Source: a virus | Reading direction: 5' to 3' (one strand) | Length of the DNA stretch: 31,938 bases | Virus genome (UHGV): UHGV-0224535 | Shown here: piece after piece, positions 1 through 5,434 of the stretch | Position numbering within the stretch: the stretch's first letter is position 1 | Layout: each line of letters opens with the position of its first letter | The notes under the pieces: model-generated | What the model was told of the DNA's origin: nothing | The model's database searches: none | Seen by the model: the letters and a program-made list of their open reading frames with translations, nothing else | Translations under genes and position numbers: made by a program

Positions 1-1
1 T

Positions 2-85
2 CAGGTTGCGGAGGCTATGGCCCTGGTACGAGCGCTGAACAAAATGACGAAAGCAGGTATACCTGAAAGCGTGCGTATTGCCTGA
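2..85 (+). CDS. 3' end of a gene that starts upstream of the window (C-terminal ...QVAEAMALVRALNKMTKAGIPESVRIA*)
   Basis: Frame open from the window edge to TGA at 83-85; not on the ORF track because it is truncated. Confidence 0.3.
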   Translation, partial: QVAEAMALVRALNKMTKAGIPESVRIA

Positions 86-155
86 AAACACAACCCGCTA
101 CGGGGGAGACTTACCCGAAATCTGATTTATTCAACAAAGCCATAATGAATTAACA

Positions 156-335
156 ATGTTTGCCACTGACGGAAAGCGCGTGGTTATCGCTACATGGACG
201 CATAACCATGATGATATTGTTTTTCGTCGCAAGGCTGCGGAGTGGCTTTTCTCTGATGGCGGCTACACGATGAACATCGCACAGCTTGCCAGAATGAAGG
301 ATGAAAAGCTGGTAGACAGCTACACAACTGCATAG
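156..335 (+). CDS. hypothetical small protein (59 aa)
   Basis: ATG at 156, stop TAG 333-335; followed by a hairpin plus T-run terminator at 364-389; below the ORF-track size cutoff. Confidence 0.4.
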   Translation: MFATDGKRVVIATWTHNHDDIVFRRKAAEWLFSDGGYTMNIAQLARMKDEKLVDSYTTA

Positions 336-363
336 CGGGGTAAATATGCGTATCTATGAACAC

Positions 364-389
364 AAGCGGGATAAAACCCGCTTTTTTTT
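364..389 (+). terminator. rho-independent terminator (AAGCGGG-ATAAAA-CCCGCTT followed by T8)
   Basis: 7-bp GC-rich stem and 8 consecutive T read directly; lies inside track ORF 346..549, arguing against that ORF. Confidence 0.6.
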
Positions 390-401
390 GTTCGTGCTGG
401 C

Positions 402-581
402 GTGGCGTATCAGTATCACGACTGCGGATATATTGAGGCGCTTGCTTACGACTTGGATTTCGAACAAGAAAAAGAATGGTTTGACTTCAAGATCTACAGA
501 AAGCGCAAGCCAACGCGCGACGAACGACACGCTATACGTGACTTTTTAATCAGCGTTGACCGATGGGAGGCAGACGAATGA
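402..581 (+). CDS. hypothetical protein; start uncertain (GTG at 402 is the only in-frame candidate, no clear RBS)
   Basis: Frame-0 reading ...DFEQEKEWFDFKIYRKRKPTRDERHAIRDFLISVDRWEADE* is protein-like and its TGA (579-581) overlaps the next ATG (578) in an ATGA coupling. Confidence 0.3.
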   Translation: MAYQYHDCGYIEALAYDLDFEQEKEWFDFKIYRKRKPTRDERHAIRDFLISVDRWEADE

Positions 582-871
582 AAGCAAAGAAAGCAGCAGA
601 TCAGAAAGCGTTAGTTATCGCTACAACGGATGTATCGTTATTCACGAAGGGAGAAGAAATAGATCTTAAATTGCTTTTCGGTATGTTTGAGCCACACGAA
701 AAGCCGTGGTTTGTTCATGAAGACAAACAAGGCAATATGCGCGTAGTAGTGCCGGACAAAAACAGCGACATATTTTTTGCTATTCCAGACCCGTTGCATG
801 ACGGAGAAATGCTGGCGGTATTGCTTATCGCTGATGCTGTTACTTACAAGGGAAAGAAATATGAAAGTTAA
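578..871 (+). CDS. hypothetical protein (97 aa)
   Basis: GGAGG 8 nt upstream of ATG 578; the track ORF 563..871 probably starts at this internal Met. Confidence 0.55.
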   Translation: MKAKKAADQKALVIATTDVSLFTKGEEIDLKLLFGMFEPHEKPWFVHEDKQGNMRVVVPDKNSDIFFAIPDPLHDGEMLAVLLIADAVTYKGKKYES

Positions 872-1088
872 ATTCTTGCACGATCACGGATACCCGTCAT
901 TGAAACAGGTTGTTGGTAAGGTCGTTAATGTCGCTCATAGCGATGATGTTACTTGCATGATTAATGGTGCTGATCTCATTGCCGCTGGTGCTGATGACCA
1001 TTACATCAATCCGGCGTGGTCGTATACGTTCAGCCTGGGCGACTTCGTGGGCGATAAGGGGCGCGGGCTGCAAGTAGTCGAGGGTTAA
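861..1088 (+). CDS. hypothetical protein (75 aa)
   Basis: ATG at 861 overlaps the upstream stop; chosen over the longer 777 start, which would lie fully inside the preceding gene. Confidence 0.5.
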   Translation: MKVKFLHDHGYPSLKQVVGKVVNVAHSDDVTCMINGADLIAAGADDHYINPAWSYTFSLGDFVGDKGRGLQVVEG

Positions 1089-1092
1089 TATT

Positions 1093-1341
1093 ATGGACGT
1101 TTACGAGGATGTTTACCTGGCACCTTCATCTTATAGCTTTTATTTTCTGATAAATGGAAAGGCTTATAGATGCGATTCTGACGGGGTGAGAGAAGAAAAG
1201 CTGTTTTGCACTAAAGGATACCTGGATGATTTGGTTTTTGCCGGGATATTTCGTAAACGCCCGGCTAACCTGGAAGAAGAAATGTTGATTGAGGTAATTA
1301 AAAATGAAAATAAGGGTAAGTTATTTCCGGGCGAAAGATAA
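1093..1341 (+). CDS. hypothetical small protein (82 aa)
   Basis: GAGGG RBS then ATG 1093; ...FLINGKAYRCDSDG... loosely resembles the paralog family below. Confidence 0.5.
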   Translation: MDVYEDVYLAPSSYSFYFLINGKAYRCDSDGVREEKLFCTKGYLDDLVFAGIFRKRPANLEEEMLIEVIKNENKGKLFPGER

Positions 1342-1555
1342 GGCAACAGGAAAGCAGATTGCGATCCTGGTTAACGAGGCGCAGTACATGTTTGTCCTTC
1401 AGCCGTGGTGTGTTGTAGATCTTAACGACAACTGTCGCCGCCACGCTGCGCGAAGTGCTGTTGGTATGAAAGGCTGGCAACCGCGCGACATGGAAAAATA
1501 TTGTGAATGGAAATTGGTGGCAAAATACACGGTCGATTATAAAGGGGTTTTCTGA
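1304..1555 (+). CDS. hypothetical small protein (83 aa); start uncertain (alternative ATG at 1385)
   Basis: Track ORF; overlaps the previous gene by 38 nt; its stop overlaps the next start (TGATG at 1553-1557). Confidence 0.45.
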   Translation: MKIRVSYFRAKDKATGKQIAILVNEAQYMFVLQPWCVVDLNDNCRRHAARSAVGMKGWQPRDMEKYCEWKLVAKYTVDYKGVF

Positions 1556-1779
1556 TGTTTGTAAAATGTATAAAGTCTCGTTTCCCTAATCTTTTTGTGG
1601 TTGATGAGATTTACGACATAGAAACGCTAATAAGCAGAACTAACGATATTCAGTACATTTATGATGAAGATGGCGATCCGTGGTTTTTTTATAACGATCT
1701 CAATGGTAGCGGATTCGTTGATGGCGTTGGCGGTAATGGTGTGTCAGTTGCGCTATTTATAAATGCAAATAAGGAATGA
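1555..1779 (+). CDS. small protein, member of paralogous family (motif F-x-x-G-x-IY ... D-D/E-x-G-x-W-x-F/Y-Y)
   Basis: MFVKCIKSRFPNLFVVDEIYDIETL...YIYDEDGDPWFFYND aligns position by position with the 1785, 2001, 2269 and 2511 ORFs. Confidence 0.6.
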   Translation: MFVKCIKSRFPNLFVVDEIYDIETLISRTNDIQYIYDEDGDPWFFYNDLNGSGFVDGVGGNGVSVALFINANKE

Positions 1780-1784
1780 ATATC

Positions 1785-1991
1785 ATGTATGTTAGATGCA
1801 CTGAATCAAAATCATCATGCTTTGAGGTTGGCGGAATATATACCGTAGCTCACCTGACTGGTGATGAACTTAACACCTAATACATTAAAGACGACCACGG
1901 AGACGCGTGGCGCTATTGGGATTGTTACGCACGGGGACACGTTACCAGTCATTTCGGTATGGAAGCGATCGTGCGTTTTGTTAAATGGTAA
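1785..1991 (+). pseudogene. paralog-family member interrupted by an in-frame TAA at 1878-1880 (nonsense allele, or read through)
   Basis: MYVRCTESKSSCFEVGGIYTVAHLTGDELNT*YIKDDHGDAWRYWDCYARG... is one continuous frame; the TAA aligns with a Gln in the 1555 paralog; both halves keep the family motifs. Confidence 0.5.
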
Positions 1992-2000
1992 GGGGTAAGC

Positions 2001-2258
2001 ATGAAGCATTTATATTTTGAGGTATTGCAGACGCGAGACCGCAATATTTTTGAAGAAGGGAAGATCTATTGCGGCGTTCAACTCCACGGCGCACCGGGCG
2101 GTGATGGTGCAATGGCGATAACTGGCGATGATGATAAGGTTTATTTCGCTTATGTTAGCCATATCAATAACGCCGCTGGTCTGTATATTTATCGCATAGT
2201 GCATGATTTCCGTGAGATCGCGGAGTTTTGCGCCCGCGAAGGCAGTAAACCGGAATAA
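2001..2258 (+). CDS. small protein, paralogous family member (85 aa)
   Basis: AAGGGG RBS; ...NIFEEGKIYCGVQLHG...ITGDDDKVYFAYV... matches the family motif. Confidence 0.6.
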   Translation: MKHLYFEVLQTRDRNIFEEGKIYCGVQLHGAPGGDGAMAITGDDDKVYFAYVSHINNAAGLYIYRIVHDFREIAEFCAREGSKPE

Positions 2259-2268
2259 GTGAGGGGTT

Positions 2269-2508
2269 ATGAACCGGAACCATAGATACCAGTGCACATA
2301 CTCACTATGCAGCGCGTTTTTTAAGAATGGCAAGATCTACGAAGTCGGCGCGGCATTGGTTGATGCAAAGGATCAGGAATATATTCACGCCATTACTGAC
2401 GACCAGGGCCGGTTATGGCGCTTTTATAAAATGGGGTACGGTACGGCGCTTGTTTATGCGCGTAATAGTAGTGGTGCTTTTGCTGCATTTTCATATGTCG
2501 GGGCGTAA
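2269..2508 (+). CDS. small protein, paralogous family member (79 aa)
   Basis: ...AFFKNGKIYEVGAALVDAKDQEYIHAITDDQGRLWRFY... matches the family motif. Confidence 0.6.
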   Translation: MNRNHRYQCTYSLCSAFFKNGKIYEVGAALVDAKDQEYIHAITDDQGRLWRFYKMGYGTALVYARNSSGAFAAFSYVGA

Positions 2509-2510
2509 AA

Positions 2511-2726
2511 ATGATTTTAACGTGTCACGGATCTGATCTTGATTGTTTCGAAGACGGTTGTCAGTACGAAGCGGAAAAGCCAGGCGGATTACCGAAAAAC
2601 CCGTTTTTAGTCGTTACAGACACTTACGGTCACTTATGGTATGCAGCGCCCAGCAAGGCGCGTGGCTGGTGGCTGATTCAGAATGAAGATCGCGAGGTTG
2701 TAGTGGCCCTCAGGCAGGACGAATAA
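2511..2726 (+). CDS. small protein, paralogous family member (71 aa)
   Basis: ...CFEDGCQYEAEKPGG...FLVVTDTYGHLWYAAP... matches the family motif; start 2 nt after the upstream stop. Confidence 0.55.
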   Translation: MILTCHGSDLDCFEDGCQYEAEKPGGLPKNPFLVVTDTYGHLWYAAPSKARGWWLIQNEDREVVVALRQDE

Positions 2727-2743
2727 AAAGCGTGATCTACCCC

Positions 2744-2790
2744 CGCAAAGTTTACAAAATGGCATTGTTTCAGCAGTGCCATTTTGTTAT
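2744..2790 (+). promoter_or_regulatory. candidate sigma70-like promoter (TTGTTT, 17 nt spacer, TATAAA) overlapped by a perfect 10-bp inverted repeat CAAAATGGCA / TGCCATTTTG
   Basis: Read directly in the 100-nt gap upstream of the 2829 gene; the half-site ACAAAATG recurs at 18967, 22567, 24476 and 31287. Confidence 0.4.
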
Positions 2791-2828
2791 AAAGAAGCTG
2801 AAGAGAGAACGATGCGGAGGGTAGAAAA

Positions 2829-3107
2829 ATGAAACGCTGGATTAACAAAGAAGTCGAATCTCGCTTAAACGCATTTTGGGAGATGGTGGAGAAAGAAGAC
2901 CCAGCACACGCTGCAAGCCCTTACCTGAACAACATCGAATATCACTACATTGCAGCAAACAACGCGGAGTTCGAAGAAGAAGGTGGAGCCGACAAGTTCG
3001 CACAAAGCAACGCATTCAACAACGCAAACGAAATGATGATGGCAGTCATCGAACAGGCAGAGGAAGACTACGAATGCAAATCACTTGAATTTGCACGCAT
3101 GGCATAA
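2829..3107 (+). CDS. hypothetical acidic protein (92 aa)
   Basis: Track ORF with GGAGGG RBS; strongly acidic (EFEEEGG..., EQAEEDYE). Confidence 0.6.
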   Translation: MKRWINKEVESRLNAFWEMVEKEDPAHAASPYLNNIEYHYIAANNAEFEEEGGADKFAQSNAFNNANEMMMAVIEQAEEDYECKSLEFARMA

Positions 3108-3116
3108 GGGGGAACC

Positions 3117-3257
3117 ATGAACGCTAACGCTAAATATCCGGCCTGGGTTTTCGAACTATACGCCCGCTACTTTGAAGTATTGGCACCAGGTGAAGAAGCA
3201 TTAAGCATTGACGAATACGCGGAGTGCTTAGGATTTAGAGGAGGAGAAGAAGAATAA
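3117..3257 (+). CDS. hypothetical small acidic protein (46 aa)
   Basis: GGGGG RBS 5 nt before ATG 3117; MNANAKYPAWVFELYARYFEVLAPGEEALSIDEYAECLGFRGGEEE*; below the track cutoff. Confidence 0.4.
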   Translation: MNANAKYPAWVFELYARYFEVLAPGEEALSIDEYAECLGFRGGEEE

Positions 3258-3269
3258 ACACGGGGCAGA

Positions 3270-3551
3270 ATGGCCCCATCAAACGGAGTAGAAATTATGG
3301 TTGTGATCAGACTATGGCGCGGAGTTAGTAGGCTTGATGGCACATACAGCCGTGTAATTGAGGTTGTTAACAATAGTATGTTTTATAAACTGGAATACAG
3401 CGAAAAAAGGGAGAATGAATATTTGAGCGAATCGACCCCTATGTGGTGCAAAGTGGCTGGCCTTTCTTCACTTATGCGTTGCGGGTTTTATACAGATTAT
3501 AACACGCTAACAGATGCCGAACTGGTGGCAACTCTTTACGGAGGAGAATAA
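3270..3551 (+). CDS. hypothetical protein (93 aa; alternative start 3297)
   Basis: Track ORF, co-directional packing. Confidence 0.5.
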   Translation: MAPSNGVEIMVVIRLWRGVSRLDGTYSRVIEVVNNSMFYKLEYSEKRENEYLSESTPMWCKVAGLSSLMRCGFYTDYNTLTDAELVATLYGGE

Positions 3552-3554
3552 ACA

Positions 3555-3878
3555 ATGACTAAATTTATCAGTGTTAAAGTTTTCCGTGGCACTATTCCAG
3601 AAAGTGAAAAATACGGCGAATTTAGTGGAATGCCTGGCGCATGTTTCCGTGTAGCTACAGAAGACGATAACCGTGTTAAATGTTTCCACATATCAGAACC
3701 GCCTTTCGATCCAGAACATCTTAAACATCCAGGTAAAATTAAAACGCTTATTTTCGCTTTTCTGACGATTAATCCTTACCCTGATCTTGAGGTTGATTTA
3801 GTCGGCGCGGAACTGGTCGCAGAATACAAAATAACCCCGGCAGAAAGCGGAGATTCTGAAATTGAGCGCATCAAATAA
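3555..3878 (+). CDS. hypothetical protein (107 aa)
   Basis: GGAGGAG RBS then ATG 3555. Confidence 0.6.
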   Translation: MTKFISVKVFRGTIPESEKYGEFSGMPGACFRVATEDDNRVKCFHISEPPFDPEHLKHPGKIKTLIFAFLTINPYPDLEVDLVGAELVAEYKITPAESGDSEIERIK

Positions 3879-4113
3879 ACCTTACAAAATCCGGTGTAAA
3901 GTGGAATATCCTGGCTTTACGACTGGATGCGAATACCTGGGCCATATGGGGTATGGCCCGTTCGGCGAGTTAGGAATGAATACGATTGACGACGACGGCG
4001 ACAACAGGACGCTTGATCTTGATAGCGATGATTTCGAATACATCCCGCCAGTCACTTACCGCGTCGTCGATGATTTCCTGGCTGAACATGAAGACGAGGA
4101 TGATGATGATTGA
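3862..4113 (+). CDS. hypothetical protein with poly-acidic C-terminus (EHEDEDDDD); TTG start at 3862 per track, true start uncertain
   Basis: Track ORF; GGAG upstream of the TTG. Confidence 0.45.
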   Translation: MSASNKPYKIRCKVEYPGFTTGCEYLGHMGYGPFGELGMNTIDDDGDNRTLDLDSDDFEYIPPVTYRVVDDFLAEHEDEDDDD

Positions 4114-4306
4114 ATGCCTTATCGCTGTGATTGTTTTGCTTTATATCGCTGGCGCGATCCTGATGTCATGTTTTATTAAGTTTAGCGGCGCTGAACCTGG
4201 TGGCCTTGAGATTCCTTTTTGGCCTGTGACTGTGTTTATCGCTTTCTTCGATGCAACGCTAGTGCAGATTAAGCGAGCCATTAAGGAGCGTAAAAATGGG
4301 AAATAG
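4106..4306 (+). CDS. small membrane protein (about 66 aa, two hydrophobic helices)
   Basis: GAGG 6 nt before ATG 4106 (three tandem ATGs at 4100-4108); MIECLIAVIVLLYIAGAILM...IPFWPVTVFIAFF... is hydrophobic; the track ORF 3986..4306 probably starts here. Confidence 0.5.
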   Translation: MIECLIAVIVLLYIAGAILMSCFIKFSGAEPGGLEIPFWPVTVFIAFFDATLVQIKRAIKERKNGK

Positions 4307-4520
4307 CGACCATCAATATGACGGCGTTTATCAGTCATTGGTGTCACGCGCTTATTATCGCCTTGAAGGTGAACACGTAATGATGCGATCACGCCAGTTT
4401 GAACTGTGGCATGAAACGGTTTTACCTGTGACAGCGAAAGAAGTTATCACGATGTTTAATCACGGACATTGGAGCAAGATTGGCGATATTAAGTTCAGGA
4501 TGTTTAAAGAGGGCGATTAA
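4296..4520 (+). CDS. small protein related to the 4521 and 4700 paralogs (74 aa)
   Basis: AGGAG RBS; ...YDGVYQS... N-terminal motif. Confidence 0.55.
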   Translation: MGNSDHQYDGVYQSLVSRAYYRLEGEHVMMRSRQFELWHETVLPVTAKEVITMFNHGHWSKIGDIKFRMFKEGD

Positions 4521-4703
4521 ATGATTGAAGATGGTATATACGCCGTGAACCTCATTGATGAAATGTTTTACCGCGTGGAGGGTAATGATATTCGTATCAG
4601 TATCGATGGTGGCGAGTGGAAAGAGCCATTCATGGATATGACGCGGGAAATAATTGAAATCATGCTTTATAACGGCGACGTGGTGAAGGTTAGCGACCTG
4701 TGA
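4521..4703 (+). CDS. small protein, paralog of the 4700 gene (60 aa)
   Basis: MIEDGIYAVNLIDEMFYRVEGNDIRISIDGGEWKE versus IEDGIYLHKVFNIVYLLKGNKVMIRPDDDPHWES in the next gene. Confidence 0.6.
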   Translation: MIEDGIYAVNLIDEMFYRVEGNDIRISIDGGEWKEPFMDMTREIIEIMLYNGDVVKVSDL

Positions 4704-4876
4704 ACGAGATCGAAGACGGCATCTATTTGCATAAGGTATTTAACATCGTCTATTTACTTAAAGGTAATAAGGTGATGATAAGACCTGATGACGATCCACA
4801 TTGGGAATCAAGCGGCATGGATCGCGAACACATGCAAACATTGCTTGATAATGGCCTGATATACAGAAAGCAGTAA
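4700..4876 (+). CDS. small protein, paralog of the 4521 gene; GTG start overlapping the upstream stop (GTGA)
   Basis: Similarity to the 4521 protein reaches the GTG codon, supporting a non-ATG start; below the track cutoff. Confidence 0.5.
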   Translation: MNEIEDGIYLHKVFNIVYLLKGNKVMIRPDDDPHWESSGMDREHMQTLLDNGLIYRKQ

Positions 4877-4898
4877 AGCCGTATTTGTTGGGGGTAAT

Positions 4899-5126
4899 AT
4901 GGAAGAAAGGGTTTTGCTGTCATCAATATGGCATCGGTTCGGAAGTGAAAAAGGTTACTCACCTGCTTGCTGGCTGGATAGTAAAAGCGGAAAGGAGTAT
5001 CAAAACGAGTGCGAATTTAGAAGGGAGTGGCGAGGCGGTAAGGAAGTGCAAGGATATTTTGCACCAAAACACGTTGCCGTCAAATACAAAGAATGGCTTG
5101 TTCGTTTGCTTGGACCTTATCGTTAA
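4899..5126 (+). CDS. hypothetical protein (75 aa)
   Basis: GGGGG RBS then ATG 4899; preferred over the overlapping 4885..5160 ORF, which is Cys/Gly-rich and lacks an RBS. Confidence 0.45.
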   Translation: MEERVLLSSIWHRFGSEKGYSPACWLDSKSGKEYQNECEFRREWRGGKEVQGYFAPKHVAVKYKEWLVRLLGPYR

Positions 5127-5191
5127 CGCCGTATTTGTAGAGCGCAAACAAACAGATTAAAATATTTCCTAACAATGCGAAATTGTAATTA

Positions 5192-5215
5192 CCCGGCCCC
5201 GCGCCGGGTTTTTGC
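5192..5215 (+). terminator. rho-independent terminator (CCCGGC-CCCGC-GCCGGG followed by TTTTT)
   Basis: Read directly; separates the early block from the lysis cassette. Confidence 0.6.
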
Positions 5216-5233
5216 TTTGTTGGAGGAAAATCT

Positions 5234-5434
5234 ATGTTCGACAGAATACGGGAGGCGTGTGCGTATGTGACTGGGGCCGTAACTGCTTTTTTCGGCGCGA
5301 TAACCATCAATGACATCGCTGTTTTCGTTGGTATCTTATCAACCGTAGGCACATTTGCCGTTAATTATTACTTCAAATCACAGGAGAACAAGCGGGCGCA
5401 AGAGGAACACGACGCGCGAATGGGGAACAAGTAA
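5234..5434 (+). CDS. holin, probably pinholin-type (66 aa, two hydrophobic segments)
   Basis: GGAGG RBS; two TM-like stretches (ACAYVTGAVTAFFGAITI, IAVFVGILSTVGTFAVNYYF), charged C-terminus; immediately upstream of a SAR-type lysozyme. Confidence 0.75.
   Translation: MFDRIREACAYVTGAVTAFFGAITINDIAVFVGILSTVGTFAVNYYFKSQENKRAQEEHDARMGNK

Follow-up and report, generated by a model that had tools for sequence, protein, structure and literature searches.

Five small genes that follow one another on the same strand of a phage genome raise three related questions: do they form one family, how did their arrangement arise, and what might their products do? The genome is UHGV-0224535, and the whole stretch of 31,938 nucleotides that was analysed is called the window below. 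It has ~83% nucleotide identity to phages mEp010, MagusPhagus, mEp044, mEp554 and mEp013 and derives from a temperate siphophage of E. coli of the mEpimmI (mEp021-like) type. The mEpimmI phages, which include these relatives, are recently described Nus-dependent, non-lambdoid temperate coliphages (PMC11893012) and are reported to be as prevalent as lambdoid phages in one human-faecal collection of Nus-dependent coliphages (PMC11893012). The closest prophage, that of E. coli 2017C-4173W12 (locus L007), is 99.6% identical to the window across positions 1093-2800. So far the five genes bear no annotation beyond that of hypothetical proteins, and neither paralogues nor duplications are mentioned for this stretch of the genome in the mEpimmI paper (PMC11893012).

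The five genes (family A), their flanking elements and three further small genes downstream (family B) are located as follows:

1304-1555, + strand: g1304 (83 aa), conserved gene at the left edge of a variable slot, outside family A
1555-1779, + strand: paralogue 1, 74 aa; phrog_31142 at E = 4.5e-9; hhalign to the 1785 subfamily E = 8e-13
1785-1991, + strand: paralogue 2, 68 codons with an in-frame TAA; phrog_31142 at E = 8.6e-38
2001-2258, + strand: paralogue 3, 85 aa; hhalign to the 2269 subfamily E = 1.3e-5
2269-2508, + strand: paralogue 4, 79 aa, the modelled member; phrog_31142 at E = 4.7e-5
2511-2726, + strand: paralogue 5, 71 aa; hhalign to the 1785 subfamily E = 4.3e-5; dN/dS = 0.07-0.17
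2754-2787, + strand: conserved stem-loop of 15 bp with a U-rich tail, right edge of the variable slot
4296-4876, + strand: family B, three genes (4296-4520, 4521-4703, 4700-4876); pairwise p = 1e-7 to 1e-4; phrog_15318

A sequence-only reading of the window had proposed that the five consecutive + strand genes at 1555, 1785, 2001, 2269 and 2511 encode paralogous proteins. All five ORFs were confirmed; each is preceded by a Shine-Dalgarno (SD)-like sequence, their starts are coupled, and the ATG of gene 1555 overlaps the TGA of the upstream g1304. The common motif F-x-x-G-x-(I)Y, followed by D-D/E-x-G-x-W-x-F/Y-Y, is seen in alignments of the five. The most divergent member is gene 2001, which has D-D-D-K-V-Y-F in place of D-D-x-G-x-W.

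The significance of this resemblance was examined in two ways. Smith-Waterman scores, evaluated against 300 shuffles, revealed strong links among 1555, 1785 and 2269 (p from 4e-7 to 3e-5), namely 1555/1785 (z = 11.0, p = 4e-7), 1785/2269 (z = 8.8) and 1555/2269 (z = 7.8), and marginal ones for 1785/2511 (z = 5.0, p = 9e-4) and 2001/2269 (z = 3.8, p = 4e-3). Profile-profile comparison of the subfamilies with hhalign, orthologues added, linked 1785 to 2269 at E = 1.5e-6 and 1555 to 2269 at E = 9e-6, besides the three links listed above. Thus, every hhalign link lies at about E <= 4e-5, and the five genes constitute one paralogous family, whose members are 17-28% identical to g1555.

Three of the five proteins (g1785, g1555 and g2269) match phrog_31142, a PHROGs v4 family with no annotation. 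Since g2001 and g2511 have no PHROG match, family A in its present outline is broader than phrog_31142. A Pfam scan of ten small proteins of the region, including the five of family A, assigned none of them to a family, the best result being a sub-threshold match to DUF6363 (E = 0.25). With nothing in Pfam and a PHROG without function, the earlier statement that no function could be assigned still holds.

Larger protein collections yielded 57 matches in a word-indexed search of 5.8 billion proteins and, when 1.84 billion representatives were searched exhaustively with the family profile, 36 matches at E <= 1e-3. Nearly all of them belong to E. coli prophages and are orthologues of one or another of the five subfamilies; the exhaustive search also revealed two new small relatives, P0179 and P0182. 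The latter (212 aa, phrog_10580), like L068 and L070, carries two tandem F-x-x-G-x-x-Y … D-D/E-x-G domains in a single polypeptide, so that the module exists both as tandem genes and as tandem domains. The C-terminus of P0182 contains a hydrophobic stretch that by eye resembles a membrane anchor. Profile matches to long proteins (Vgb_lyase/NHL/Reg_prop propellers and CshA/Big_9 adhesins) were rejected as short, multi-stretch matches of a D-x-x-G-x-x-W β-hairpin motif. We also rejected the PliC/MliC periplasmic lysozyme inhibitors, as family A does not show their combination of an eight-stranded barrel, a signal peptide or lipobox and a periplasmic location. A search of PDB sequences with the family A profile gave chance matches alone (E > 1), and 9AXB, a structure considered below, was not among them.

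The array had also been thought to extend loosely to position 1093 and to include three more copies at 4296-4876. The former extension was not borne out, as family A and g1093 were compared by hhalign at E = 0.14. The latter was not supported either: the three genes do form a family, but hhalign against family A gave E = 0.06 and the predicted folds differ, β-β-β-α-β in family B vs. an all-β six-stranded barrel in family A. Family B is thus a separate paralogous family by both the profiles and the predicted folds; its copy number across loci varies from zero to three. Among the other small neighbours, hhalign detected no significant similarity of family A to g3862, g563, g861, g1304 or g3555. 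It should be mentioned that g3862 displays a visible F-x-x-G…D-D-D-G-D pattern, for which hhalign gave no significant support. Between family B and the holin gene, the window contains a 75-aa ORF with an SD sequence (4899-5126), for which the RefSeq prophage annotation gives 'hypothetical protein'.

The genomic setting of the cassette is seen in annotated relatives, in which a gene for a Q-like antiterminator lies upstream of the cassette region and the holin, lysozyme and Rz genes lie downstream; in the window these lysis genes begin at 5234, 5435 and 5914. The term 'early region' used previously is therefore imprecise: the cassette is located between the antiterminator gene and the lysis genes, and the sequence alone does not tell its expression class. 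On its left border, g1304 was found in 49 of 49 loci (dN/dS 0.05-0.15). On the right, the 79-nt segment 2722-2800, which contains the stem-loop, folds as RNA at -24.1 kcal/mol (z = -5.35); the hairpin is kept in mEp010, mEp044, mEp554 and MagusPhagus regardless of the gene that precedes it, and the annotations of mEp010, mEp044 and mEp554 give a Rho-independent terminator at the homologous position. An Rfam search gave no relevant match. Family A occupies a dispensable, variable slot that extends from g1304 to the terminator-like hairpin.

Several other elements were noted around this slot. Directly upstream of the conserved hairpin, mEp044 carries TGTGATCTGTATCACA (L004, ~4757-4772) and mEp554 carries TGTGATCTTTATCACA (L005, ~4310-4325), a perfect TGTGA-N6-TCACA palindrome that resembles a CRP site; a degenerate form, CGTGATCTACCCCCGC, is present at 2731-2746 in the window. 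Directly 5' of the SD sequence and start of the holin gene (5234), a strong, GC-rich hairpin that resembles a terminator and has a T-run (5191-5209) recalls a tR'-type terminator, which would require Q antitermination. In the related prophage L009, an HNH_3 endonuclease gene (7564-8085) lies between the lysozyme and Rz-like lysis genes, and mEp013 has an HNH gene near the terminase; both resemble mobile endonuclease insertions within the group. On the left side, g1093 (1093-1341) is orthologous to mEp021_41, which is annotated as 'virion structural protein' although it is not located in the structural module.

In lambdoid phages, morons classically reside between Q and the lysis genes. Family A might accordingly consist of 'moron' or lysogenic-conversion genes expressed from the prophage, whose small products would be made in the lysogen to the benefit of the host, e.g., by excluding other phages, instead of acting in lytic growth. 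The position of the cassette in this interval would agree with such a role, as would the conserved terminator-like hairpin of its own that follows it, the presence/absence polymorphism of its genes and the occurrence of the family almost exclusively in E. coli prophages. However, a promoter scan of positions 1-5300, upstream of the cassette and within it, revealed no sigma-70-like promoter on the + strand. Moreover, the genes of the region form one long, tightly packed co-directional string in which the cassette is translationally coupled to upstream phage genes, and structural relatives occur in virulent Drexlerviridae, which have no lysogens. We consider this explanation quite unlikely.

To follow the cassette among related phages, we used a set of loci anchored on the conserved g1304, which comprised 41 IMG/VR loci, eight loci from GenBank, RefSeq and Logan, and the window, and which is counted as 49 with the window included. 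Across these mEpimmI-type loci the copy number of family A ranges from zero to five, and the gene order is always 1555-1785-2001-2269-2511. The rarest member, gene 1555, is present in six of the 49 loci (window included), and no member at all is found in 11 of the 49, i.e., mEp021 and 10 others. Since the order is fixed while anything from none to all five genes may be present, the duplications predate the divergence of these phages and the variation comes from loss.

The array had been interpreted as a tandem amplification under diversifying selection. This is not supported: we found a fixed order with loss and, for orthologues, dN/dS of 0.07-0.32, which corresponds to purifying selection (lysozyme, 0.07-0.11; Nei-Gojobori estimates from small counts). 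The divergent gene 2001 has dN/dS = 0.13 against its MagusPhagus orthologue. Family A is an old, decaying cassette rather than the product of a recent amplification; its retained members are under purifying selection, but members are frequently lost.

Traces of decay are found both in relatives and in the window. Split copies and in-frame fusions are common among the related loci. Family A copies are split in L015, L043 and L050. In-frame fusions join a 2269-like N-terminus to a family B C-terminus (P0007), a 2269 N-terminus to a g3555 C-terminus (P0014, P0055) and the N-terminus of 1555 or 1785 to the C-terminus of g3862 (P0019, P0040), the last two with the junction at the common D-D/E-x-G-D motif; one in-frame fusion ORF was seen in its genomic context, in locus L009 (6001-6231). 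Presumably, these ORFs are products of deletions. The two junctions at D-D/E-x-G-D hint either that g3862 is a cryptic relative of family A or that the deletions were driven by microhomology. Further in-frame chimeric ORFs were noted in P0168 and in L006 (4275-4577); in all, the chimera types include family A joined to g3862, g3555 or family B, and g3862 joined to family B.

In the window itself, gene 1785 contains a premature in-frame stop codon, a TAA at 1878-1880, where the intact orthologues P0016 and P0017 have a Gln codon (CAA). The window copy is a nonsense pseudogene or encodes a truncated product of 31 aa, and the window therefore contains four intact copies and one nonsense copy. As the gene differs from that of the L007 prophage by this single C→T substitution (CAA vs. 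TAA), the stop codon would either stem from a very recent nonsense mutation or reflect a sequencing error. It should be mentioned that the intact 1785 orthologue in L007 was left unannotated by PGAP in RefSeq, as a gap at locus positions 5187 to 5409.

Such observations might suggest that the genes are functionless, decaying ORFs hitch-hiking in a recombination-prone region; the nonsense copy 1785, the split copies and in-frame fusion ORFs of relatives, and the full absence of the family from mEp021 and 10 other loci could all be read in this way. This is the least probable of the explanations that we weighed, given that orthologue dN/dS falls in the range of lysozyme, that the motif and the predicted fold are conserved at 17-28% identity to g1555, and that gene order is conserved.

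If the retained genes have a function, it might lie in the virion, with family A encoding proteins that are minor parts of the particle or serve its assembly, for instance decoration proteins or ejected ones. Several annotations point in this direction: that of mEp021_41, the orthologue of the neighbouring g1093; that of phrog_14592 ('virion structural protein'), which is matched by the distant relative P0182; and the name 'putative minor capsid protein' of one structural neighbour in BFVD. Mass spectrometry of virion proteins has been reported for mEp021 in the mEpimmI paper (PMC11893012); yet mEp021, the source of this proteome, has no family A gene. Likewise, 11 of the 49 loci (counting the window) do without the family, its genes lie outside the structural module, and the BFVD and PHROGs names are annotations that have not been tested. 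A role in the virion is therefore very unlikely in our opinion.

A different line of evidence comes from the predicted structure. The AF2 model of g2269, built without templates from an alignment of 22 sequences, has a pLDDT of 81.7 and a pTM of 0.70 and contains six β-strands (E5-12, 23-31, 38-43, 49-56, 59-63 and 70-78) with a long β1-β2 loop. Its match to Gp54 of Escherichia phage Bas11 (PDB 9AXB; Pfam PF25180, 'Phage antiviral trigger protein Gp54') was unique, and the two features by which the Gp54-like fold was recognised, a six-stranded β-barrel and a prominent β1-β2 loop, are both present in the model. The 2269 protein is thus predicted to adopt a rare six-stranded β-barrel, solved so far for Bas11 Gp54 alone, and the other four members probably share this fold, which we assign to them by homology. 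We regard the assignment of fold and family with good confidence; the link to Gp54 itself comes from one predicted structure, computed from a shallow 22-sequence alignment.

At the level of sequence, Gp54 is more distant. None of the five proteins reached the gathering score of PF25180 (27 bits) or had a Pfam match at E <= 1; Gp54 itself scores 116 bits. Comparison of Gp54 homologues with family A by hhalign was not significant (E = 0.078), and the F-x-x-G segment alone was aligned. Gp54 carries F21-K-K-G24, before β2, and G40-L-T-W43, which, considering sequence and predicted secondary structure together, may parallel the two motifs of family A. Within the same two segments, G24D is an escape substitution of Gp54 towards CapRelSJ46, and W43* is a loss-of-function escape mutation.

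Family A might also consist of small nucleic-acid-binding regulators with an SH3- or Sm-like barrel, with transcripts or DNA of the phage or the host as their targets. The structural comparison speaks against this, as the SH3 and FeoA scores were far below that of Gp54. In addition, no member matches any Pfam family, nucleic-acid-binding ones included, and the sequences, judged by eye, are acidic to neutral rather than basic. We find this explanation as improbable as a role in the virion.

What is known about Gp54 gives some content to a further possibility, an interaction with host proteins. Gp54 triggers the defence protein CapRelSJ46 (PMC11578894) by binding its zinc-finger-like antitoxin domain (PMC11578894), in a mode that involves partial unfolding and β-sheet augmentation via the β1-β2 loop and β2-β5 (PMC11578894). 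The authors suggest that the native role of Gp54 may be inhibition of another defence system (PMC11578894); our literature search revealed no Gp54 function beyond CapRel triggering and no paper tying the mEpimmI group to Gp54. Even close homologues of Gp54 fail to activate CapRelSJ46 (PMC11578894), and the fold therefore does not predict the partner.

Host takeover or anti-defence had been named earlier as a typical role of such arrays. Because the 2269 model matches the CapRelSJ46 trigger Gp54, a link to phage-host immunity is plausible, even if no function can be assigned. The best explanation of the data as a whole, to which we give about an even chance, is that family A is a cassette of ancestral origin, whose five genes encode small, single-domain proteins (68-85 aa) with Gp54-like barrels that engage host proteins. 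Each paralogue would serve in lytic growth as a small protein-binding module with a host protein of its own as the target, be it a factor of defence or of physiology. Binding might occur through the conserved F-x-x-G loop and exposed edge strands, much as Gp54 clamps the zinc-finger-like domain of CapRelSJ46. Proteins of this kind can act as inhibitors of a host factor or be recognised by one, which would explain why loss, fusion and pseudogenes are frequent while the retained copies stay under purifying selection. Different host targets for individual paralogues are the most likely mechanism, which we nevertheless put forward only tentatively; frequent loss and pseudogenisation could also mean that the genes matter little.

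A bolder version of this proposal would have the five paralogues form a battery of Gp54-like 'immune interface' proteins, each binding its own sensor or effector of E. coli defence, in some cases as an inhibitor and in others as an inadvertent trigger. We consider it unlikely as it stands. If it were true, the polymorphism in presence/absence, fusion and nonsense alleles that the cassette shows among gut prophages would be the trace of a continuing arms race with CapRel-like sensors, and the 'very rare' Gp54 barrel would be a widespread modular scaffold for host immunity in temperate and virulent enterobacterial siphophages. More generally, the recurrence of a Gp54-like fold in the mEpimmI cassette and in further Drexlerviridae proteins would offer natural variants with which to ask what such barrels bind. 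The cassette also supplies a defined set of proteins to screen for triggers and inhibitors of defence and, with its fixed gene order and frequent losses, lends itself as a clean natural experiment on dispensability.

It remains to compare family A with known systems. In a Foldseek search of the model against BFVD, the best matches were mainly small uncharacterised Drexlerviridae proteins (TM 0.7-0.86), headed by a 127-aa protein of NBD2 (E = 9.7e-4, TMq = 0.72), whose membership in phrog_2684 is assumed. The phrog_2684 group includes uncharacterised Drexlerviridae proteins such as Bas11 gp48 (121 aa) and A0A192YAG3 of Escherichia phage NBD2 (127 aa), and its C-terminal domain has F-K-A-G-K-R-Y … F-D-E-D-G-D-R-F-x-L-Y, similar to the family A motif. 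With hhalign, the C-terminal domain of phrog_2684/Bas11 gp48 matched the 1555 subfamily at E = 1.6e-5 and the whole of family A at 1.4e-4; g1555 matched phrog_2684 at E = 0.018. This suggests a weak but consistent sequence homology. At the same time, the phrog_2684 proteins are two-domain proteins of ~120 aa from virulent phages, and 36-40 residues of the motif core alone can be aligned with family A.

SH3-like β-barrels differ from family A in having five strands and a 3-10 helix; their scores were less than half of that of Gp54, and they have no sequence relation to the family. Gp54 is the product of a single-copy gene of a virulent T1-like phage, and an HMM search revealed no paralogues of it within Bas11, whereas family A forms a five-gene tandem cassette in a temperate phage. 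The family A proteins also differ from Gp54 in that their β2-β3 hairpin is longer and their C-terminal tails vary, and no sequence homology between them is detectable. On the strength of the predicted structure, family A is best placed among the Gp54-like small β-barrel proteins, as a branch of five tandem members that is distinct in sequence.
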